From Candidatus Nealsonbacteria bacterium (GTDB lineage: Bacteria; Patescibacteriota; Minisyncoccia; Minisyncoccales; JANBVM01), in assembly GCA_047456295.1 (NCBI GenBank), contig CP179887.1, positions 45,944 to 109,943 on the forward strand: a stretch of DNA of 64,000 nucleotides, written 5' to 3'. Positions 3,471 through 60,653 of the stretch are shown here, one piece after another (within the stretch, counting starts at the first letter, position 1; each line of letters starts with the position of its first letter). The translations under genes and the position numbers were made by a program. The notes under the pieces were generated by a model, which was not told the DNA's origin, made no database searches, and saw only the letters and a program-made list of their open reading frames with translations.

Positions 3471-4469
3471 ATGAAAATTGGCGTTGATTTAGGAACCTGT
3501 AATTCGGTTGTTTTTATTCCCAAGAAAGGAGTGGTTTTACAAGAGCCATCAGTGGTAGCTGTAGCTTTGGCAGAGAATGAGATTTTAGCTGTGGGAAGAG
3601 AAGCCAAAGAAATGATGGGCAGGACCCCTGATACCATCAAGATATACCGTCCACTTAGAGACGGGGTGATTGCTGATTTCAGGGTTACCCAGGCCATGCT
3701 TAAATATTTTATTGATAAAGCCCTGGGTAGATTTCGACCTTTTAAGCCTGATTTAATGATTGGTATTCCAGCTGGCATTACCTCTACTGAGAGGAGAGCA
3801 GTAATTGAAGCTGGCATGAATGCCGGAGCCAGGGCAGTTTATTTGGCAAAAGAACCAATCCTGGCAGCTGTGGGAGCCAATGTTCCTATCAATAGCTGCT
3901 CGGGCAATATGATTCTTGATATTGGAGGAGGAACATCTGAAGCTGCAGTAATTTCTCTGGGAGGAATTGTCAATTTTCATTCCATAAGGGTAGCTGGAGA
4001 TAAAATGGACCTGGCTATCTCTGATTACATTAAGAAAAAATACAATTTAGCCATCGGACAACAAACAGCCGAAGAAATAAAAAAAAGAATTGGTACAGCC
4101 TTACCTGATAAAGAAGAGAAAAGGATGGATATCAAGGGAAGGGATATGGCTCTGGGTTTGCCAAAGAACATTAAGATTTCATCAAACGATGTCTGTATGG
4201 CCTTATCTGATATTCTTTCAGAGATTATTCAGATGATTAAAATAGTGCTTCGGGATACTCCTCCTGAGCTCTCAGCTGACATACTGAACAAGGGTATGGT
4301 AATGACAGGGGGAGCTTCTTTGCTGAATAAGTTTCCAGCATTAATTGCCAGATCAATCGGTGTTCCAGCTATCTTAGCTGATGATTCCATTTTATGCGTA
4401 GCAAAAGGAACAGGAATAATGCTGGAAAATCTTGATCTCTACAAGAAAACCATAATGAGTAAGAAATAA
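3471..4469 (+). CDS. mreB: MreB-like actin homologue (paralogue 1)
   Basis: IGVDLGTCNS phosphate-1 motif, DIGGGTSE phosphate-2 motif and MTGGASLL adenosine motif. Confidence 0.85.
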   Translation: MKIGVDLGTCNSVVFIPKKGVVLQEPSVVAVALAENEILAVGREAKEMMGRTPDTIKIYRPLRDGVIADFRVTQAMLKYFIDKALGRFRPFKPDLMIGIPAGITSTERRAVIEAGMNAGARAVYLAKEPILAAVGANVPINSCSGNMILDIGGGTSEAAVISLGGIVNFHSIRVAGDKMDLAISDYIKKKYNLAIGQQTAEEIKKRIGTALPDKEEKRMDIKGRDMALGLPKNIKISSNDVCMALSDILSEIIQMIKIVLRDTPPELSADILNKGMVMTGGASLLNKFPALIARSIGVPAILADDSILCVAKGTGIMLENLDLYKKTIMSKK

Positions 4470-4482
4470 GGTGGTGGCTTTC

Positions 4483-5331
4483 ATGATTATCGGTCATAAA
4501 AAACAACAACAATTTTTAAAAAAAATAATTAGCTCAAGAGAAATTCCCCATGCTTTATTGTTTACAGGTCCGGAAGGATTGGGAAAAAAGACAATAGCTT
4601 TACAATTCCTTTCTTCTCTTTTTGGAGAAAAACTCTTTCAACATCCTGATTTCAGTTTAATTACCCCTATAACAAAGCAGATTCAAATTAACCAGATCAG
4701 AGACCTCAGATGGAGATTATCTTTAAAACCAATTAAGGCCCCTCTTTTGGGAGCTGTTGTTGATAAAGCCCATTTAATGACCAGGGAAGCCCAAAACTGT
4801 TTTTTAAAGACCCTGGAGGAGCCCAAAAGCAGAAGCCTTTTAATTTTAATTAGTGAATATCCAAATTACCTTTTATCTACCATTGTTTCCAGGTGCGAAA
4901 AGATTAAGTTTTATCAGGTGGAAAATAGAGAAATAACCAGTTACCTGGAGAAAAAAAAGGTTTCCAAAGAAAAGATTGAGGAGATTGTTGAAATTTCTCT
5001 GGGAAGACCGGGAAGGGCTGTTAATATATTGCAAAACCCGGAGAAGTTGGAAGAAAGGAAAAAAAAGATAAGAGAGTTAATTAAGATTTCAGGTTCTCCT
5101 CTGTCTTTACGCTTTAAATATGTCAAGGAATTAGCCCAGCAGCAGGACTTGAAAGAAACCCTGGGCATTTGGTTGTTCTACTTCAGGAAGGGTTTAATTT
5201 CCTGTAGAAACCGCACAGAATTAATAAAGATAAAAAATATTCTTAAGGCCGTACAAGAAACAATGTTTTTACTTTCAACCACAAACGTCAATCCCAGGTT
5301 AGCCTTGGAAATATTAACAATGAAACTATAG
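4483..5331 (+). CDS. holB: DNA polymerase III delta-prime subunit
   Basis: HALLFTGPEGLGKKT clamp-loader motif and SRC motif (IVSRC). ATG at 4483 preferred over the GTG at 4471. Confidence 0.75.
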   Translation: MIIGHKKQQQFLKKIISSREIPHALLFTGPEGLGKKTIALQFLSSLFGEKLFQHPDFSLITPITKQIQINQIRDLRWRLSLKPIKAPLLGAVVDKAHLMTREAQNCFLKTLEEPKSRSLLILISEYPNYLLSTIVSRCEKIKFYQVENREITSYLEKKKVSKEKIEEIVEISLGRPGRAVNILQNPEKLEERKKKIRELIKISGSPLSLRFKYVKELAQQQDLKETLGIWLFYFRKGLISCRNRTELIKIKNILKAVQETMFLLSTTNVNPRLALEILTMKL

Positions 5332-11833: not shown

Positions 11834-11860
11834 TAAAAATTTACTTTATAATTTTCATAT

Positions 11861-11934
11861 GGGGACGTAGCTCAATTGGTTAGAGCTCGTGATTGTCGAT
11901 CACGAGGTTGCGAGTTCGAGTCTCGTCGTCCCCG
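11861..11934 (+). tRNA. tRNA-Asp (GTC)
   Basis: Acceptor GGGGACG/CGTCCCC, anticodon loop TTGTCGA, T arm GCGAGTTCGAGTCTCGT, discriminator G. Confidence 0.9.
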
Positions 11935-11944
11935 AATTTTCAAG

Positions 11945-12340: not shown

Positions 12341-12425
12341 GGTTTAGGCAGGAAAGTAGTCGAGAAAGCTATCTATTTTCTCCATCATTTCTTCAGGATT
12401 CTCTATAGAATCAAGCCATTCCAGA

Positions 12426-12499
12426 GTTCGAAAATAGTCTCGTCGTCCCCGCCACAATAAGAAATCGCCTTTTAGGTGATTTTTTTGTAGAATAGGAAT
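12426..12499 (+). repeat. Junction module J1: tRNA-Asp 3'-end-like fragment, hairpin with T-run, -10 box
   Basis: GTTCGAaaataGTCTCGTCGTCCCCGCCA compared with the genuine tRNA-Asp 3' end. Then ATCGCCT-TTT-AGGTGAT hairpin, T7, and TAGAAT 6 nt before the ATG at 12500. Confidence 0.7.
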
Positions 12500-13922: not shown

Positions 13923-14191
13923 TATTTAATCATTCAATTATTGCGATACGCGGAAAATTATTCCAAAACCAAGTTTTAATTATATCCAACCATCCCCGCC
14001 AAATTGTAATTCAAAGAATCAAGGTTCTGAGGAGCGGTAGCGACGAATGGTTCTTATAAAATTGGATGTAATTAGATATAATTCGAGCTTTTTGTTCGGA
14101 TTTTTTTCACAAAATTACACAAAATTAGTTTGATATTTTTTTAAAATTTGTTACACTAAATTTAGGCCTCCTCGAATTTAGTGAAAATTTT

Positions 14192-14764
14192 ATGAAACAA
14201 AAAGAAGTATTATTTATTACGGGCAATAAAAGTAAATTAGCTGAGACAACTAAGATGGCTGAAAGATTCTCAGTAAAGATAGTAGGGCAAAAAGCTAATT
14301 TATTTGAGCCAATGGTATCCGATTCTACTAAAATCTTAATTGACAAAGCAAAGGATGCATATAAAAAGTTTGGTAAGCCTTTAATCGTTGATGATGCTGG
14401 TATTTACTTTGGAGCTTATCCTAATTTTCCTGGTGTATTCACGAAATTTATTATTAAGTTGCTTGGTTTTAATGGAATCATTAAGTTATTAGAAGGAAAA
14501 AGCAAAGACGCTTACTTCAAGTGCACAATTGGTTTTATTGACGAAAAGTTAGACCAGCCTCTTTTATTTGAAGGTATATCTAAGGGGAAAATAACCGAGA
14601 AAATTTCGATAAACTTCAATGGAAATTTCGAATTTAATAGTATTTTTATTCCTGAGGGAGAAAGTAAAACTTTTTCAGAAATGTCAATTGAGGAACGTAG
14701 TAAACACTGTCATAGAGATAGAGCGTTAGAGAAATTTTTAAGTTGGTATGTTAAAGAATATTAG
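14192..14764 (+). CDS. Ham1/RdgB-family non-canonical (d)NTP pyrophosphatase
   Basis: Family motifs ITGNKSKLAE, DDAGIYF, PGVFTKF and SKHCHRDRAL. Confidence 0.75.
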   Translation: MKQKEVLFITGNKSKLAETTKMAERFSVKIVGQKANLFEPMVSDSTKILIDKAKDAYKKFGKPLIVDDAGIYFGAYPNFPGVFTKFIIKLLGFNGIIKLLEGKSKDAYFKCTIGFIDEKLDQPLLFEGISKGKITEKISINFNGNFEFNSIFIPEGESKTFSEMSIEERSKHCHRDRALEKFLSWYVKEY

Positions 14765-14769
14765 TAAAA

Positions 14770-15396
14770 ATGAAATATATTAAAAAGGAAACAATTGGGG
14801 CGAGTTGGTTAAAAGCAGTAGAGGTGGTTATGGAAGAAGGAAACGATTTTTATGATCGCGATGTTAAGATAAAGGAGTTACTTGATCTTTTCATTGAGAT
14901 AAAAGATGCTCTTCTAATTGACGACGTGATAAAGAAACATGGAGATAAGTATATGATAGAACAACTAAAAATAGTTTTATTGGATACAAAACCAGGTGAG
15001 TGGGGGTGGAGTTATGGACAAAGGTTGTTTGGAGATAGTAACTATTTTAACCAAATAGAATTTATTGTAAATAAATTAAAGAGGAAACCGGAAACAAAAT
15101 CAGCTACCGTAACTTGTTTATTTCCTAAGGAGGATTTTCAGAAGGGAGCTCACATTCCATGTATTTGTCTTTTGGATTTTAAAATTAGAGATAATAGGTT
15201 GAACATGAGTGTTTGTTTAAGAAGCCAAGATATTGCTAAAAAGATGTATGGGGATGCGCTTGCTTTAGGTAAACTCATGGAAAAAGTAGCTAACGAATTA
15301 GATGTCTTGACGGGTAATCTTAAACTGTACATTATGTCGGCTCATATTTATGAAAACGAGTTTGAGAAAATGAGAAAAATAATAGGAAACTCTTAA
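14770..15396 (+). CDS. Short thymidylate-synthase-like protein 1 (Asp at the ThyA Asn177 position)
   Basis: IPC(131)ICLL...CLR(151)SQD(154)...YGD(162)...SAHIYENE. Spacing matches E. coli ThyA C146/R166/D169/N177/H207-Y209. Confidence 0.7.
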   Translation: MKYIKKETIGASWLKAVEVVMEEGNDFYDRDVKIKELLDLFIEIKDALLIDDVIKKHGDKYMIEQLKIVLLDTKPGEWGWSYGQRLFGDSNYFNQIEFIVNKLKRKPETKSATVTCLFPKEDFQKGAHIPCICLLDFKIRDNRLNMSVCLRSQDIAKKMYGDALALGKLMEKVANELDVLTGNLKLYIMSAHIYENEFEKMRKIIGNS

Positions 15397-15585: not shown

Positions 15586-16152
15586 ATAAAAGTTATATAT
15601 GTAGGAGGAGTTAAGGGTGTTGGTAAAACCTTTGTCCTTCGTGAGGTCTTTAGGCAACTATCTTTAGAAAAAGTGCCTTTTAAGAAGGCAAAAGTTGCAA
15701 AAGTTATGTTTGATCTATTAAAAAGATACGGTATGGTTGAGAAGTATGATGAGTTAGAAAATATTAGTGTCGAAATAAAAGATTGTATTCGCAAAGAATC
15801 TTTCAAAAAAATACTGAAAGATAAAAATGAAAATTTGATTTTCGATGGCCATTATTCAATATCGTCACAGTTTGGTTATGAGTATGGAATTCCATTGAAT
15901 TTTATAAAAGAAATTGATCACTTAGTATTATTATATAACAATGAAGATGTTGTTCGCAGGAGAAGGTTAGAAGATAAATCTAAAAAAAGAGAGACAAGTT
16001 TAGAGAAAGTAATAATAGACTTAATAATAGAGGAAGCGTTTGCTGAGTTTTATGCGAGATTACGGGGTAGAAAGTTAAAGAAGATAGAAACTAATAATAA
16101 AGCCAGTGTCAGTTTAAAAGATTTTATAAAGGAGGTGTTTGAAAGTGGTTAG
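15586..16152 (+). CDS. P-loop nucleoside/nucleotide kinase-like protein (archaeal Adk-like); apparent ATA start
   Basis: An in-frame Walker A (GGVKGVGKT) lies upstream of the GTG at 15673 given in the ORF track. Between the TGA at 15577 and the P-loop the only start-like codon is ATA at 15586, 7 nt after the SD AAGAGGTGA. Confidence 0.55.
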   Translation: MKVIYVGGVKGVGKTFVLREVFRQLSLEKVPFKKAKVAKVMFDLLKRYGMVEKYDELENISVEIKDCIRKESFKKILKDKNENLIFDGHYSISSQFGYEYGIPLNFIKEIDHLVLLYNNEDVVRRRRLEDKSKKRETSLEKVIIDLIIEEAFAEFYARLRGRKLKKIETNNKASVSLKDFIKEVFESG

Positions 16153-16789
16153 ATTAATAGAAGCAGATAATATTTCAGAAGCATGGTTAAAGGGATGTGA
16201 ATGTATTATAAATTACGGCTTTAGAACGAAAAGAAAAATCAAACTCCATAATTTGATTGCTGAGATTAAAAATATAACTCTAGATAAATACATAGATGAG
16301 CAATTTAGAAATTATATGAATCTAAGAATATTCAAGCGAACATTGGATATCGTTTCTTCAGATCAAAACCTCAATTCACATCCTAATTATTGGAGACGCT
16401 TGAAAGGAAAGGAAGAATTTAAGATAGACCAAGTGGCCCGCGTTATTTCCAGACTTAGAAAGCAGCCTCATTCAACCAAGCTTACCTTATGTATTTACAG
16501 CCCTAACGATTTCAAAAAGATGTATACACCTTGTATTTTATGTGCTGAATTAAGAGTGAATAAGAGGCGTCTTAATATGACCGCTTTTATCAGAAGTCAA
16601 GATTTCGCAAATAAAAGTTATGCTGATTATATAGGTTTATCATCTATTCTTAAACGAATTGGAGAGAATAGTAACATAAAACCAGGAGCAATTCTTACTC
16701 ATACTATAACCGCATTTATTGCCTATAAAGACCTAAGCCGAATGAAATCCTTTTTAAATATCATAAGGGAAAAGAAAATATCAAATTAG
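16139..16789 (+). CDS. Short thymidylate-synthase-like protein 2 (Asp at the Asn177 position; HxY motif lost)
   Basis: TPC(132)ILCA...IR(152)SQD(155)...YAD(163). The C-terminal motif is TAFIAY instead of xAHIY. Start is TTG 16139 or GTG 16145, after the SD AAGGAGGTG, and overlaps the kinase stop. Confidence 0.65.
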   Translation: MKVVRLIEADNISEAWLKGCECIINYGFRTKRKIKLHNLIAEIKNITLDKYIDEQFRNYMNLRIFKRTLDIVSSDQNLNSHPNYWRRLKGKEEFKIDQVARVISRLRKQPHSTKLTLCIYSPNDFKKMYTPCILCAELRVNKRRLNMTAFIRSQDFANKSYADYIGLSSILKRIGENSNIKPGAILTHTITAFIAYKDLSRMKSFLNIIREKKISN

Positions 16790-56048: not shown

Positions 56049-56085
56049 TTAATTTTAAAAAATCTTCCTTTTAAAGAAAGGAAAA

Positions 56086-56160
56086 GTTCGAGTCCTACTA
56101 CCGGAGCAAATTAAGTTCAAAAATCGCCAATCAGGCGGTTTTTTGATAAAATGAACTATA
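56086..56160 (+). repeat. Junction module J4
   Basis: AGTTCGAGTCCTACTACCGGAGCA (tRNA-3'-like), then AAATCGCCAATCAGGCGGTTTTTTGATAAAAT, with the ATG 8 nt after the -10. Confidence 0.7.
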
Positions 56161-56577
56161 ATGACAAGAAGAATTGCTATTTTTGCCCCTTCTGGAGTTG
56201 GTAAATCAACACTAATTAAGATTGCCTTAAAACAAGGGATAAAGGCTTATGATTTTGAAGATTTCTCTTCTCAAGAAAGAATAAAAAAAGCTCAAGAAAT
56301 TCTCAAGAAGGATTTTAATGACATTGTATTGTTTAATGCGGGAGATTTACAAACTAAAGATTTCCCGTTTGATGTTGAACTGGTATTGCTTTTACCTCCT
56401 AAAGATATTTATTTGAAGCGTTTAAAAAAGCGCGACAAATTAAATCCAGAGAAAAAAGGCCAACAAGGGAATATGAAGTATGAGATATTTTTTTAAAAAA
56501 AGAACATTTTTCATAGAATTATTAAAGATACAGGAACAGCGGATGAAATTTTAGATAAGATATTAAAAAGTTTATGA
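56161..56577 (+). pseudogene. P-loop kinase-like gene, frameshifted/decayed copy of 57269-57685
   Basis: The first 95 aa align with the paralogue (RRIAIFxPxGVGKSTLIK). The frame breaks after NPEKKGQQ near an A/T homopolymer. The C-terminal FHRIIKDTGTADEILDKILKSL* resumes in another frame and ends in ATGA overlap with ppa. Confidence 0.6.
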
Positions 56578-57044
56578 ACATAAAAGTTTTTATTGAGAAT
56601 AAAGCAGGGTCTAATCAAAAAAATATCTATGATGAAAAAACCTTGCAATATAAGAAAACTGTAATAATCTCAAGGAAATATCCATATCCCTATGGTTTCG
56701 TTTTGAATACCACAAGTGGGGATGGTGATAATGTAGATTGTTTTGTGTTAACAAACAAAAAACTTAAAACTGGTGAAATCGTTGAGTGTAAACCTATTGC
56801 CATGATGGAGCAAATAGAGTCTTATTCTGCAGAGCCAGGAATAGAGGAAGAAGACCACAATGTCTTAGCTGTTTTAGAGGGTGAAAGTTTTGAAATAGAC
56901 GATATATTAAAGAATAAACTGTCTGAATTTGTTTCACATGCCTTTGACCATTTACCAGATAAAAAAGTTAAAGTAGGAAATTTCTTAGATGAAAAAAAGA
57001 CTATAGAGTATATAGAAAAATGTAGAGATGCTATTAATCTTTAA
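56574..57044 (+). CDS. ppa: Family I inorganic pyrophosphatase
   Basis: YPYPYGFVLNTTSGDGDNVDCFVL active-site motif. Confidence 0.8.
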   Translation: MNIKVFIENKAGSNQKNIYDEKTLQYKKTVIISRKYPYPYGFVLNTTSGDGDNVDCFVLTNKKLKTGEIVECKPIAMMEQIESYSAEPGIEEEDHNVLAVLEGESFEIDDILKNKLSEFVSHAFDHLPDKKVKVGNFLDEKKTIEYIEKCRDAINL

Positions 57045-57158
57045 ATTCAGGTTCGAACATTATCCTATTAAATTAGGTTAATCCTTGAAATAGTCTTTAA
57101 ATCTCTAAGCTTTTTCTCAATTTCTATCCAATCAATAGTTCTAAATTGGTAAATTTTC

Positions 57159-57268
57159 CCAAAACCAAGTTCTAATATTGTACCACCCCCGGAGCAGGCT
57201 AGTGCTCGGTTCAAGTGACCGAGACGCATCAAATCGCCTTATAGGCGGTTTTTTGGTAAAATCGAAAT
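57159..57268 (+). repeat. Junction module J5
   Basis: CCCAAAACCAAGTTCTAAT...CCCCCGGAGCA, then hairpin CTCGGT-TCAAGTG-ACCGAG, then AAATCGCCTTATAGGCGGTTTTTTGGTAAAAT-CGAAAT-ATG. Confidence 0.7.
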
Positions 57269-57685
57269 ATGAAAAGAAGAATTGCCATCTTTGGTCCTCC
57301 TGGTGTTGGTAAGTCAACCCTAATTAAGCTCGCTATAAAAAGAGGAATAAAGGCCTTTGATTTCGAAGATTTTCCTGAGGAAGAAACATTAAGGCGAGTC
57401 AAAGAAATCTTCAAAAAAGTTCCTGATGACATTGTATTGTATGGTGCGGCTGGCTTACAGACTTATGATTTCCCACAGGATGTAGAACTGGTGTTGGTTC
57501 TGCCACCTAAAGATATTTATTTAGAGCGTATAAAGGAGCGGGATACAGTAAATCCAGCTAAAGTAGGCCAGAACCATTTGGAATGGTATGATGGCTATAC
57601 AAGTACTAAGAATCGTTATCATAAAGTTATTAGTGAGACAGGAAGTCCCAATGAAGTTTTAGATAAAATATTAGAAGATTTATGA
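57269..57685 (+). CDS. Small P-loop kinase-like protein (138 aa)
   Basis: Walker A GPPGVGKST. ATGA overlap with the downstream S66 peptidase gene. Confidence 0.6.
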   Translation: MKRRIAIFGPPGVGKSTLIKLAIKRGIKAFDFEDFPEEETLRRVKEIFKKVPDDIVLYGAAGLQTYDFPQDVELVLVLPPKDIYLERIKERDTVNPAKVGQNHLEWYDGYTSTKNRYHKVISETGSPNEVLDKILEDL

Positions 57686-58653
57686 AAAGTGTTACCCCAT
57701 CAAAACTTAGAAAAGGAGATGAGATAAGAGTCATAGCTCCTGCTAAAAGTTTCAAGACCTCCTTCACAGAAGAGAGAATGGCAACCGCAATGAAAAGGTT
57801 TGAAGAAATGGGTCTGAAAGTTAGTTTTGGAAAACATGTCTACGAACGGAATGAATTTGAATCCACAACTATTGAACATCGACTAGAAGATTTACATGAT
57901 GCTTTTTCAGACAACAACGTAAAAGGGATTTTAACTGTTCTTGGAGGTACCCATTCCAATCAGCTTTTGAAGTATATAGATTACGACCTCATCAGTAATA
58001 ATCCTAAAATCTTATGCGGACTATCGGACATCACTTCCTTGGCAAATGCAATACATGCTAAAACAGGACTGGTGACATATTCTGGACCACACTTCACGTT
58101 GTTTGGTGTAAATAAAGCAATTGACTATACTGTCGATTATTTTAAGCAATGTTTTTTTACAAACGAATCAATAGACGTACAAGCTTCGGAGCATTTTTGT
58201 AATGATAGATGGGACAGTGAAGAAATTCCAAACGATGGAATGTGGCTCATCAATCGTGGTGAAGCTCAAGGAAAAGTTCTCGGCGGTAATATGGTCACTT
58301 TCAATCTTCTGCAAGGGAGTGAATACTTTCCTGATATCTCTGATTCAATCATCTTTGTGGAAGACAACGCAAAAGAAAGTATTCGCGCCTTTGAAAATCA
58401 CTTACAATCACTTATCAACCAACCAAATTTTTCCAAAGTGATAGGGTTAGTAATTGGCAGGTTTCAAGAAGGTACTGGAATGACAAAAAAGTTACTTACA
58501 CAAATCGTTCAAACAAAAAAAGAATTTAACAATTTACCTGTTATTGCAAATGTGGATTTTGGACATACAATCCCAATGATTACTTTCCCCATCGGAGGCG
58601 AATGCAAAATTGCAGCAAAGGACGATCCTAGGATTAAGATAACCAAACACTAA
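57682..58653 (+). CDS. S66-family LD-carboxypeptidase / MccF-like serine peptidase
   Basis: LRKGDEIRVIAPA start, nucleophile elbow CGLSDITSL and C-terminal DFGHT motif. Confidence 0.75.
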   Translation: MKSVTPSKLRKGDEIRVIAPAKSFKTSFTEERMATAMKRFEEMGLKVSFGKHVYERNEFESTTIEHRLEDLHDAFSDNNVKGILTVLGGTHSNQLLKYIDYDLISNNPKILCGLSDITSLANAIHAKTGLVTYSGPHFTLFGVNKAIDYTVDYFKQCFFTNESIDVQASEHFCNDRWDSEEIPNDGMWLINRGEAQGKVLGGNMVTFNLLQGSEYFPDISDSIIFVEDNAKESIRAFENHLQSLINQPNFSKVIGLVIGRFQEGTGMTKKLLTQIVQTKKEFNNLPVIANVDFGHTIPMITFPIGGECKIAAKDDPRIKITKH

Positions 58654-58832
58654 TTATGGACAAAATGAAACAAGAAAGCACGGTCAATTTGATTATATAA
58701 AAAGCATTGGATGCTACCTAGACAGTGTGTGAACCGACATCAATATCCTTGTATAGTTCAAGAACGCGTACCGATGCAGCAAGCGGAAGCGATTGAAATT
58801 TTAAAGACTATTTTATCTAAAGACCATTAAAA

Positions 58833-58989
58833 CAGGTTCTAACCTCGTCCAGCCCCCGGAGTCAGCTTGTGCTCGGTTCGAGGGACCGAGACACTTTCGG
58901 TTCGAATCCTAACCCCACAGATGGTAAAATCAAGCTTGAAAGAAGCTTGCTTTTTTATTAAATTTAGGGAAAGGTTAAAATAGTGACTT
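58833..58989 (+). repeat. Composite junction region (two tRNA-3'-like segments, shared hairpin, terminator, -10 box)
   Basis: CAGGTTCTAACCTCGTCCAGCCCCCGGAG; CTCGGT-TCGAGGG-ACCGAG; GGTTCGAATCCTAACCCCACA; TGGTAAAATC; CAAGCTT-GAAAG-AAGCTTG followed by T6; TAAAAT 8 nt before the ATG at 58990. Confidence 0.6.
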
Positions 58990-59925
58990 ATGGAGATAAA
59001 AAACACAAAACCATCTTTTCGTTGTGTGTTACATGGAAGTTTCCGCAAATACTGGGATTTAATTAAAAGAACACATCGTATCTTTACTGAAGCCGGTATA
59101 GAAGTTTTGGCGCCTCGTGAAACAGAAATAACTTCTTCTACAGAAGGCTTCGCATTTTTAGAAGGTGAAGAAGATAAAGACCCTCGGATGGTTGAGTTGC
59201 TATATCTGCATAATCTTAAACGATTAGGGGAAAACGGTTTTAGTTATTTTGTAGATCCAGAAGGATACATAGGCAAAAGTGCATCTTATGAACTTGGCAT
59301 TGCACAAGTTACAAATATAAGGTGCTTCTTCTTCGATACCCCAAGGGACCACCCAGCTTATATTCATAGAAATGCTATTTGGAAACCTGAAAACCTCACT
59401 ACATTTATACGAGAGAAAGGAAGATTACCTGAGCCTCAAGTAGAGCCGGACAAACAAAAGATTCATAAGCTTTGGGAAGATTTAATGGTACCTGGTTCTG
59501 TAGTAGCTGCGGGAGGCATTATTGAGTATGACTCTGATAAAAAAGAGAAAGAAATTCTTTTAGTAAAGACTCATAAGTGGAAAGGACGATATTCGATTGT
59601 GGGGGGTAAGCTTCGCAGAAATGAAAGACTTGAAGATGCTTTACTTAGAGAAGTTAAAGAAGAAACAGGATTGGTAGGAAGGGTTGGAGAACATCTTTGC
59701 ACTTTTGACCAGATAAAAAACTCTGGTTATTACTTGCCTGGAATACAACATATTTTTGTTGATAATGTAGTTCATGTTAGAAGTAAACACGTTCGTTTGA
59801 ATGAAGAAGCAGAAGATTATATTTGGATACCAGCACGAATTGCGCTTCGTGAACTTTCAATAGAACCAAATGCTCGTCATACACTTCAATTATATGCTGA
59901 CAGCTTTTCTGTGTTAAGTAACTGA
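58990..59925 (+). CDS. Fusion protein: nucleoside 2-deoxyribosyltransferase/DNPH1-like N-domain plus Nudix hydrolase C-domain
   Basis: N-domain GKSASYELGIA resembles the NDT-family catalytic Glu motif. C-domain has the Nudix box GGKLRRNERLEDALLREVKEETGL. Confidence 0.6.
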   Translation: MEIKNTKPSFRCVLHGSFRKYWDLIKRTHRIFTEAGIEVLAPRETEITSSTEGFAFLEGEEDKDPRMVELLYLHNLKRLGENGFSYFVDPEGYIGKSASYELGIAQVTNIRCFFFDTPRDHPAYIHRNAIWKPENLTTFIREKGRLPEPQVEPDKQKIHKLWEDLMVPGSVVAAGGIIEYDSDKKEKEILLVKTHKWKGRYSIVGGKLRRNERLEDALLREVKEETGLVGRVGEHLCTFDQIKNSGYYLPGIQHIFVDNVVHVRSKHVRLNEEAEDYIWIPARIALRELSIEPNARHTLQLYADSFSVLSN

Positions 59926-59934
59926 TTTATAAGA

Positions 59935-60026
59935 CAGGTTCTAAAATCGTTCGTCCTTCGGAGCTAAAAAATCGCTAAATAGGCGATTTTTTGATAAAAT
60001 AAACAATATAAGTAAAAAATATTAAT
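59935..60026 (+). repeat. Junction module J6
   Basis: CAGGTTCTAAAATCGTTCGTCCTTCGGAGC followed by AAATCGCTAAATAGGCGATTTTTTGATAAAAT. Confidence 0.65.
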
Positions 60027-60653
60027 ATGGCTTTAATCAATAACCTAATCCAACAAGGTTGGTTAAAAACACCTAAAATTATTAAGGCTTTTAAAGAAAT
60101 CAAAAGAATTGATTTTTTGCCTGAAGATTCAAAAAATCTGGCTGAATTAAATGAACCCCTACCAATAGGATATGGACAGACAATATCTCAACCATTGGTT
60201 GTAGCTTTTATGATAGAACACCTCCAACCTAAACAAGGCCATAAGATTTTAGATATTGGTTCAGGTTCAGGCTGGACAACAGCCTTGTTGTCTTACATTG
60301 TAGGACCCAAAGGAAAGGTAATAGCCATTGAAGTTATTCCAGAATTAAAGGAGTTTGGAAAGAAAAACGTATCAAAATACAACTTTATACAAAAAGGAAT
60401 AGCAGAATTTATATGTGCAGATGGTTCAAAAGGGTATGAAATAAAAGCCCCTTTCGACAACATCTTAGCCTCAGCTTCAGCCCAGGAAATTCCTCAATCC
60501 TGGAAAGAACAATTGAGGATAGGTGGCAGTATTGTAACCCCTATTAAGTCTTCCATCTGGGTTTTCACCAAAAAATCAGAAAAAGACTTTGAGGAACGGG
60601 AATATCCTGGTTTTGCTTTTGTACCACTTATAACAAAGAATGAAAACACATGA
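60027..60653 (+). CDS. pcm: Protein-L-isoaspartate O-methyltransferase
   Basis: GYGQTISQP motif and SAM motif I ILDIGSGSGW. Confidence 0.85.
   Translation: MALINNLIQQGWLKTPKIIKAFKEIKRIDFLPEDSKNLAELNEPLPIGYGQTISQPLVVAFMIEHLQPKQGHKILDIGSGSGWTTALLSYIVGPKGKVIAIEVIPELKEFGKKNVSKYNFIQKGIAEFICADGSKGYEIKAPFDNILASASAQEIPQSWKEQLRIGGSIVTPIKSSIWVFTKKSEKDFEEREYPGFAFVPLITKNENT

Follow-up and report, generated by a model that had tools for sequence, protein, structure and literature searches.

Paired P-loop kinase-like paralogues in a putative tRNA-Asn-derived cassette array of Candidatus Nealsonbacteria

The window analyzed here, a stretch of 64,000 nucleotides from Candidatus Nealsonbacteria (Parcubacteria, Candidate Phyla Radiation (CPR); contig CP179887.1), carries two paralogous genes for small kinase-like P-loop proteins, each placed directly before a gene for an enzyme of another kind: copy 1 before ppa, which encodes an inorganic pyrophosphatase, and copy 2 before the gene for an MccF-like S66 serine peptidase. 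An original prediction from the sequence had proposed that each kinase acts with the partner to which it is coupled, in resistance or repair, and that this module was serially duplicated. The account that we consider probable is a different one: the genes would be uncharacterized P-loop kinase paralogues, one live and one dead, carried in a cassette array derived from tRNA-Asn, and their present partners would be accidental.

56161..56577, plus strand: kinase-like copy 1, an apparent pseudogene, with TAA at 56494-56496 (codon 112) and a GC content of 28%
56574..57044, plus strand: ppa, predicted divergent family I inorganic pyrophosphatase of 156 aa with the motif DGDNVD, joined to copy 1 by an ATGA overlap
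57269..57685, plus strand: kinase-like copy 2, intact, 138 aa, identical to the NCBI protein P0001 from a 689-kb contig of Candidatus Nealsonbacteria
57682..58653, plus strand: predicted MccF-like S66 serine peptidase of 323 aa, with the nucleophile motif CGLSDIT and the motifs FVEDN and DFGHT

The kinase-like genes and their partners

The two kinase-like genes are collinear and 417 nt long, and they share 59% protein identity (tblastn E=3.5e-51) and about 71-75% of their DNA sequence. At a constant offset of 1108 nt, 56161-56460 aligns with 57269-57568 and 56500-56578 with 57608-57686, and the collinearity of the two segments runs from the terminator to the ATGA. The paralogy thus stands as originally described, as do the repeated junction upstream of both copies and the ATGA overlaps at their 3′ ends, at 56574 with ppa and at 57682 with the S66 gene; in both two-gene units, kinase-ppa and kinase-S66, the kinase copy lies nearer the promoter. 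No further kinase copy was found within the 64-kb window. A third C-terminal relic had been proposed at 58788-58830, but its best local alignment to copy 1 spans 28 nt and was equalled or bettered by 28 of 300 shuffles, and it neither aligns with copy 2 nor matches the hidden Markov model of the family; this candidate was set aside as a chance likeness.

Copy 1 had also been described as frameshifted. However, one frame can be followed through all of 56161-56577; it has 138 codons, of which codon 112 is the sole in-frame TAA, and a frameshift is thereby ruled out. The stop sits in a T7A7 run within TTTTTTTAAAAAAA, and its flanks match the homologue P0005 in the same frame (GQQGNMKYEIFF-stop-KKNIFHRII versus GQKSHTVYEGFSRHKHLFQRVI); 3′ of the TAA the frame stays open and conserved as far as the ATGA. 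The resulting 111-aa product (P0007) is recorded both in NCBI and in an independent Logan assembly. Cut off at the stop, the modelled fold would lack its final beta-strand and helix. Copy 1 has also changed residues that the family keeps: in 40 homologues the sites of its substitutions G9A and P11S never vary, and those of G59N and A61G hardly do. Because of the nonsense codon and the substitutions at invariant Walker A sites, copy 1 looks like a decaying pseudogene, a gene that kept its function during most of its history and died recently.

Copy 2 and the two partner genes are under purifying selection: dN/dS, the ratio of nonsynonymous to synonymous substitution, is 0.12-0.18 for copy 2 against its orthologues, 0.13 for ppa (against contig L004) and 0.15 for the S66 gene (against contig L003), with 90% nucleotide identity for both partners. 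Between copy 1 and copy 2 it is 0.39. Copy 1 shares 68% nucleotide identity (dN 0.32) with the kinase gene upstream of ppa in L004, and its GC content compares with 40% in copy 2. The protein distance between the copies is 0.58, against 0.14-0.22 between copy 2 and its orthologues, and P0005 was the nearest neighbor of copy 1 in 360 of 500 resamplings (72%). Given these distances and the grouping with P0005, we infer that the copies separated long ago by comparison with the sampled relatives, and not in a recent tandem duplication. To call the module serially duplicated was thus too simple, the divergence between the copies being about four times that between copy 2 and its orthologues.

The product of copy 2 has the motifs of a small P-loop kinase. 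These include a Walker A sequence of the form GxxxxGK[ST] (GPPGVGKST, residues 9-17), D31-F-E33, G59-A-A-G, LVLPP and Y84..R87...R91-D..P..K98..Q101. Across a 40-member alignment the pattern is G9-P-P-G-x-G-K-S, D31-x-E33 ending strand 2, G59-A-A-D, L-L-L-P-P and Y84..R87...R91-D..P..K98..Q101, with G9, P10, P11, G14 and K15 invariant. An AlphaFold (AF2) model built on the family alignment (mean pLDDT, the predicted local confidence score, 84.5) places strand 4-8 before helix 15-24, as in a P-loop, and has the fold of nucleoside monophosphate (NMP) kinases and shikimate kinases, that is, a three-layer alpha/beta arrangement with a parallel sheet and an arginine lid helix. Foldseek against PDB returned archaeal Fap7/AK6 first (27% identity, TM 0.64), followed by shikimate kinases, hCINAP and adenylate kinases; the small-molecule or antibiotic kinases TmrB and chloramphenicol phosphotransferase are also among the structural neighbors. 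A profile search against PDB chains matched Fap7 (4cvn) over its full length (E=6e-5).

None of the curated models accepts the protein. Pfam AAA_18 (AK6/Fap7-like) scores 25.0 bits for copy 2 and 21.1 for copy 1 against a gathering threshold of 29.4, Pfam SKI (PF01202) 16.6 against 22.1, and NCBIfam PRK03839 21 against 152; every NCBIfam equivalog likewise scores far under its cut-off. In comparison with shikimate and gluconate kinases and AK6-Fap7 (AAA_18, SKI; 1zuh, 2pt5, 4cw7, 3iij), the protein is 25-40 residues shorter than any and shares 13-27% of its sequence with them. The label 'kinase-like' is therefore supported by motifs, model, Foldseek and the Fap7 profile match at the level of fold and motif, and the protein lies outside every curated family; the kinase identity originally assigned holds to that extent and not at the level of a named kinase.

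A word-indexed search yielded seven close relatives, and a profile search of 1.8 billion cluster representatives yielded 215 proteins at E<=1e-3, 74 of them at E<=1e-10, nearly all of 135-150 aa. The family is sparse, its named members coming from Nealsonbacteria, Magasanikbacteria (CPR) and one Thorarchaeota record. Pfam was uninformative on the domains fused to the kinase in P0015, P0016, P0040-P0049, P0071 and P0078, and an 18-nt pattern from the kinase 3′ end gave only chance matches in viral contigs, with no kinase among them. Membership in anti-phage defence was dropped as a candidate role, PADLOC matching the kinase with only P-loop noise.

The partners are better anchored. The ppa product reaches 71 bits with Pfam PF00719 (cut-off 23.5), as expected of family I, and matches PDB 1qez of Sulfolobus (E=1.7e-12), its DGDNVD aligning with the metal-binding motif DGDPLD; because it falls below the NCBIfam equivalog cut-offs, its sequence marks it as a divergent member of that family. 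The S66 protein carries both Pfam domains (N and C, 121 and 89 bits) and aligns over its full length with Bacillus anthracis BA_5613 and Listeria Lmo1638 (4e5s/5usd/4h1h; E about 1e-98 to 1e-95, 1.8e-98 for BA_5613), ahead of MccF 3gjz (4e-42) and LdcA (about 1e-13). CGLSDIT, FVEDN and DFGHT each have an aligned counterpart in 4e5s and 4h1h; in the Lmo1638 chain 4inj, Ala stands at the Ser position. The full-length likeness, both domains and the Ser/Glu/His motifs are thus common to BA_5613, Lmo1638, Escherichia coli MccF and the window protein, which agrees with the original description of this protein as MccF-like. No kinase partner is mentioned in the names of the 27 PDB chains that match it, and a literature search on MccF/S66-kinase operons returned nothing relevant.

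Conservation of the kinase-partner linkage

Close relatives of the kinase show the same two pairings. P0002, P0003 and P0004 are 79-87% identical to copy 2 and 81-89% identical among themselves; in three contigs (L004-L006) the P0002 gene overlaps the ppa gene behind it by 4 nt, ATGA-type, and P0003 and P0004 are followed by S66 (L007 and L003), as in the window. Given their mutual identity, a single kinase subtype (86-89% identical) is joined to enzymes of two unrelated kinds. L004 and L007 are 89% identical from the junction motif through a 230-nt promoter and leader to the end of the kinase, and the homology stops at the ATGA. The units also occur apart: P0005 stands alone in L002, with a junction motif 48 nt before its start and 17 nt after its stop, and in L097 an S66 homologue (E=5e-110) lies directly 3′ of a junction without a kinase. 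No kinase was found among 80 other motif-bearing contigs (387 kb). The cassettes that follow differ as well, with SurE after S66 in L003 and an unrelated gene after ppa in L004.

Beyond these relatives the pairing disappears. Neither S66 nor ppa lies beside any of eight more distant homologues, and linkage was seen only at 79% or higher identity to copy 2. P0006 has tRNA-Gln upstream and a sigma-70-type gene downstream; P0161 lies between MazG-like and Peptidase_S51 genes, P0159 near GNAT and APH genes, P0014 among hypothetical genes amid tRNAs, P0064 (Magasanikbacteria) with GlmS and MJ0043_C, and P0162 and P0055 each with a convergent radical-SAM/LAM_C gene. Because the distant homologues and the stand-alone cassettes lack the pairing, the proposed resistance or repair module fails outside one narrow clade: across the family, there is no conserved neighborhood of the kind that a functional kinase-S66/ppa module would show.

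The ATGA overlaps add little to the case for coupling. All 4-nt overlaps in the window are of this type, and they occur in 6 of 53 co-directional adjacent pairs of open reading frames (ORFs) of at least 90 aa. A motif resembling a Shine-Dalgarno (SD) sequence lies within 20 nt upstream of just 6 of 60 window ORFs, and -10-like elements lie 6-8 nt before the ATG at several genes (e.g. 56147-56152 and 57257-57262), which suggests that translation in this organism may be SD-independent and partly leaderless. The overlaps are ordinary gene packing in an SD-poor genome.

Two further observations concern the surroundings of kinase homologues. In L003 (565-815), L004 (35-265) and L007 (855-1093) the kinase lies behind a strong promoter (TTGACA-N17-TATATT) and about 200 nt of conserved, AT-rich leader, which take the place of the terminator/-10 junction; the leader, which may be regulatory, is absent from the window. 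Some distant homologues lie near tRNA genes: in L001 a tRNA-Gln (1313-1384) is 214 nt upstream, and in L030 tRNA-Ser and tRNA-Leu (3768-3854 and 4416-4500) flank or overlap the kinase homologue. The family may tend to occupy tRNA-proximal variable regions.

The junctions and their relation to tRNA-Asn

The intergenic regions around the kinase-like genes share the motif GTTCTAA-N4-GTNC-N7-GGAG(C), an optional conserved hairpin, and a terminator-like hairpin (AAATCGCC-N4-AGGCGGTTTTTT) with TGnTAAAAT directly after it. Full copies of the motif lie at 57169-57194, 58836-58861 and 59938-59963, and degenerate ones at 56084-56109 and 57048-57063.

56084..56109, plus strand: orphan tRNA-Asn 3′ fragment AAGTTCGAGTCCTACTACCGGAGCAA, with normal tRNA geometry, at the left edge of the array
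56120..56152, plus strand: terminator-like hairpin AAAATCGCCAATCAGGCGGTTTTTT, then TGATAAAAT, an extended -10 (promoter scan 56124-56152)
57048..57063, plus strand: degenerate junction motif CAGGTTCGAACATTAT right after ppa, intact in L004 as CAGGTTCTAACCTCATCCATCCCCCGAAG
57113..57195, plus strand: truncated 'type C' flank (ending in tccaatcaataGTTCTAAa) fused to a complete 'type B' motif ccaaaaccaaGTTCTAATATTGTACCACCCCCGGAGC, core 57169-57194
57196..57225, plus strand: conserved hairpin caggctagtgCTCGGTtcaagtgACCGAGac, with a 6-bp stem and a 7-nt T-loop-like loop
57229..57262, plus strand: terminator-like hairpin AAATCGCCTTATAGGCGGTTTTTT, then TGGTAAAAT, upstream of copy 2
58836..58861, plus strand: 'type A' junction motif GTTCTAACCTCGTCCAGCCCCCGGAG, almost the same as the one that the phage-like contig L036 carries at its edge
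58862..58958, plus strand: second copy of the conserved hairpin, a tRNA-3′-end-like fragment, TGGTAAAAT and a terminator at 58931-58958
59938..60000, plus strand: junction motif GTTCTAAAATCGTTCGTCCTTCGGAG, terminator AAATCGCTAAATAGGCGATTTTTT and TGATAAAAT, preceding pcm

The fragment at 56084-56109 consists of a T-loop, the 3′ strand of a T-stem, the 3′ strand of an acceptor stem and a discriminator G. It aligns with the 3′ ends of the intact tRNA-Asn genes in L114, L094 and L106 together with their downstream terminator and promoter; neither ARAGORN nor Rfam calls a tRNA at this position. The element at 56120-56152 has five related copies in the window versus 0 expected, and the same element follows real tRNA-Asn genes. 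The ATG of copy 1 lies 8 nt past the -10, which implies that its transcript would be leaderless or nearly so; in copy 2 the distance is 6 nt.

We scanned metagenomes for the motif and found its consensus, aAAACAGGTTCTAACATCGTCC-N7-GGAGC(C)A, widespread in low-GC contigs (at least 120, L041-L120 among the loci). An analysis set of 142 instances was drawn from 85 sequences (80 of these contigs, L002, L003, L004, L007 and the window), with a mean GC of 36% for the contigs. All but two of the 142 copies are intergenic; they lie at a median of 55 nt past a stop codon and 90 nt ahead of the next start. Of the nearest ORFs on the upstream side, 105 are co-directional and 10 are not; on the downstream side the counts are 88 and 25. 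Two to six copies occur in 29 contigs, in every case on one strand, with a spacing of 0.4-2 kb. The motif falls into sub-families with conserved left flanks, and the junction families type B and type C recur in many of the contigs.

In four of these loci (L052, L094, L106 and L114) the array is immediately preceded by an intact tRNA-Asn(GTT), called by ARAGORN, in the same orientation. The real tRNA-Asn ends in GGTTCGAGTCCTACCCGCGGAGCCA, and in L094, where the order is dnaG-rpoD-tRNA-Asn-array, and in L114 the terminator and -10 element seen in the window come after it. All displaced copies have five extra nucleotides between T-loop positions 58 and 59, and their acceptor-like N7 segment varies among copies and mismatches the local tRNA. 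From the alignment with intact tRNA-Asn genes and the shared terminator and -10 element, the junction is a copy of the 3′ end of tRNA-Asn, usually with the five extra T-loop nucleotides, together with the downstream terminator and -10 region. Repeats of the tRNA 3′ end, as in an integrative array, are thus present, headed by an intact tRNA-Asn at the four metagenome loci and, in the window, only by the orphan fragment.

Homology between contigs often starts or stops at the motif: L079/L097 and L002/L086 end at +26, and L059/L076 begins at -6. One IMG/VR contig, L036 (IMGVR_UViG_3300009529_003397), has terminase, SPP1-type portal and capsid genes and a GC content of 52%. On its minus strand, at 14696-14723, a near-identical motif lies in an AT-rich end with a terminator, and GC-rich DNA starts immediately after GGAGCC; this edge may reflect either an integration event or a chimeric assembly. 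In the multi-motif contigs, a Pfam census (149 ORFs) returned 122 families, Nudix being the most frequent. No recombinase was found among the families with at least two members in these ORFs, none was seen in 20 further ORFs near arrays and tRNA-Asn genes, and no integrase was seen in the sequence examined.

The conserved hairpin (caggctagtg-CTCGGT-TCGAGCG-ACCGAG) has two copies in the window versus 0 expected, the second at 58869-58892, and recurs after the motif in L045, L078, L091, L093, L098, L100, L102 and L113, and also in L097; in some contigs an outer stem, TGAGGCG...CGCCTCA, surrounds the same conserved loop. It has no Rfam match and might act as a structured RNA or, at the DNA level, bind a protein. 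For the junction as a whole, Rfam returned no known RNA family at the gathering threshold or at E<=10.

Three other readings of the motif were considered and rejected. A coding origin is at odds with the conserved heptamer lying in different frames across sub-families and with the intergenic position of nearly all copies. As a DNA-uptake sequence the motif would be too rare and too confined, there being only three full and two degenerate Asn-type copies in the window, within 4 kb and on one strand. As for an integron attC, inspection of the motif copies by eye found no complementary TTAGAAC partner in the junctions, the motif is not palindromic, and no IntI was found in the ORFs scanned.

The array continues past the S66 gene.

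58654..58835, plus strand: decayed spacer with a 39-aa ORF at 58711-58830, not demonstrably kinase-derived
58990..59925, plus strand: Nudix gene, 311 aa (Pfam PF00293, E=4e-13, residues 176-298; PHROG nudix families)
60027-60653: pcm (PCMT in Pfam, E=2e-53), preceded by the junction at 59938..60000

The spacer can be partly aligned with the one that follows S66 in L003. The N-terminal 170-aa domain of the Nudix gene product has no match in Pfam, NCBIfam or PHROG. In the junction upstream of this gene, the tRNA-3′-end-like fragment TTCGGTTCGAATCCTAACCCCACAG (58896-58921) has an acceptor segment unlike the Asn type.

A second, small array lies elsewhere in the window, at 12420-12490 and 13965-14000, downstream of a tRNA-Asp (11860-11935). 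At 12426 the 3′ end of tRNA-Asp is repeated, with a 5-nt T-loop insertion of the same kind and a subsequent CCA (GAGTTCGA[AAATA]GTCTCGTCGTCCCCGCCA); this copy precedes the same terminator/-10 element, and a type-B-like motif copy lies at 13973. By eye, the genes in this array resemble an HhH glycosylase, a low-molecular-weight phosphatase or ArsC, and then Ham1. Two paralogous ORFs of about 210 aa (14770-15396 and 16139-16789), by eye resembling thymidylate synthase or dCMP hydroxymethylase, flank a 159-aa ORF (15673-16152) that looks kinase-like in fold and has no P-loop; these ORFs would be another duplicated nucleotide-metabolism pair.

Origin and meaning of the arrangement

Based on these results we regard it as probable that a cassette array derived from tRNA-Asn carries many small accessory genes, the kinase gene among them. 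The two copies would be old paralogues made adjacent by accretion or shuffling of cassettes, and the kinase-partner pairs would have formed by fusion or exchange of neighboring cassettes, through recombination in the shared junction and the kinase homology. Recombination or gene conversion within this homology would put one kinase subtype before different partners, and the break would fall exactly at the ATGA because recombination stops where homology ends. Copy 1 would have died recently. Several points weigh against this account. Since no recombinase was found in the ORFs examined, the mechanism of cassette movement is read from breakpoints only, and on short contigs gene conversion between two resident copies looks the same as true cassette exchange. 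The sources searched hold no experimental annotation for any member of the kinase family, and the Pfam and NCBIfam kinase models all stay under their cut-offs for this protein. The MazG-like and Peptidase_S51 neighbors of P0161 loosely echo a nucleotide/peptidase theme. As the ATGA coupling to ppa and S66 is kept in several close relatives, co-expression may bring some benefit in this narrow clade; a dedicated kinase-MccF/ppa module confined to it is conceivable, and nothing specific favors it. Finally, the stop of copy 1 lies at a T7/A7 homopolymer boundary, so that a base-calling error is conceivable; countering this, the 111-aa product is recorded from a second assembly source, and the substitutions at invariant sites are independent of the stop.

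The alternatives account for parts of the same evidence. Had the segment of junction and kinase been duplicated in tandem in situ, its 3′ copy ending before another gene and both copies diverging in place, the collinear segments running from terminator to ATGA at a constant offset would follow directly, and at synonymous sites copy 1 is indeed nearer to copy 2 (dS 0.74) than to the kinase of L002 (dS about 2.6). Set against this are the roughly fourfold greater protein distance between the copies than between copy 2 and its orthologues, the 72% grouping with P0005, the difference in GC content, and the relatives, in which the units are not adjacent and have other neighbors; we consider such a duplication unlikely. 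The original model, in which the kinase would, for example, phosphorylate or recycle the nucleotide set free by MccF from aminoacyl-nucleotide antibiotics, or would be coupled to the removal of inorganic pyrophosphate, the module being serially duplicated, has in its favor the retention of the ATGA overlaps in close relatives, an S66 that is indeed MccF-like, nucleotide-related cassettes nearby (Nudix in the window, SurE in L003) and structural neighbors such as TmrB and chloramphenicol phosphotransferase. It is nonetheless distinctly unlikely: a single kinase subtype has two unrelated enzymes as coupled partners, kinase and S66 each stand alone (L002, L097), the eight distant contexts have neither S66 nor ppa, the 80 motif-bearing contigs have no kinase, and ATGA overlaps are generic in this genome. 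Moreover, the copy linked to ppa is apparently dead while ppa itself is still under purifying selection. It is very improbable that both kinases are active, with copy 1 working as a truncated 111-aa protein or in full length by read-through or slippage at T7A7. The frame that stays open and conserved from the TAA to the ATGA, the homopolymer setting of the stop and a dN/dS below 1 would be consistent with function; the altered invariant Walker A residues, the loss of the last beta-strand and helix, and a genome that uses table 11, with TAA stops elsewhere, argue otherwise.

How the tRNA-Asn-derived cassettes move can be considered in the light of two known kinds of system. With integrative elements at tRNA genes the arrays share direct repeats of a tRNA 3′ end in the same orientation, headed by intact tRNA-Asn in the four metagenome loci, and a phage-like contig (L036) joined exactly at the motif 3′ end. 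In contrast to such elements, the units here are 0.4-2 kb long and hold one or two ordinary metabolic genes, no integrase was seen, and the repeats have a constant 5-nt T-loop insertion and an acceptor segment that mismatches the local tRNA. With integron arrays of ORF and attC they share small co-oriented, mostly single-gene units with a conserved site at the 3′ end, a variable gene content and a cassette order that differs between close relatives; unlike integrons, their site is tRNA-derived and their junctions bring promoters and terminators of their own, the motif lacks R''/L''-L'/R' inverted repeats, and no IntI was found. A literature search on CPR integron or cassette systems returned nothing relevant. 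We tentatively suggest, as a possible though doubtful reading, that aAAACAGGTTCTAACATCGTCC-N7-GGAGCCA, a mimic of the tRNA-Asn 3′ end with five extra T-loop nucleotides, is the recombination site of a previously undescribed integron-like system of Parcubacteria. Promoter-bearing cassettes would be inserted, excised or exchanged at the tRNA-Asn 3′ end or at an existing motif, by a recombinase yet to be identified or by transformation and junction homology, and kinase-ppa and kinase-S66 would each be a cassette of this kind. The missing recombinase and the sampling of breakpoints on short contigs only call for caution here.

As to function, the protein would be an ATP-dependent phosphotransferase of the shikimate-kinase/NMP-kinase class. 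To our knowledge, CPR bacteria generally lack the shikimate pathway. Because the neighboring cassettes encode ppa, Nudix, PCMT and SurE, the substrate is most plausibly a nucleotide or another small metabolite of salvage or 'house-cleaning' metabolism, and the kinase is probably not a dedicated partner of MccF. The pattern GPPGxGKS, DxE, GAAD, LLLPP and Y..R...RD..P.K.GQ defines a compact family of about 140 aa that has no curated model; it may rank among the smallest proteins of the P-loop kinase fold, and its named members are found in organisms that depend on nucleotide salvage. The cassette array is a more interesting lead than the proposed resistance module, which is unsupported. If the motif is indeed a recombination site, it would reveal how the ultra-small genomes of CPR bacteria exchange accessory metabolic genes.

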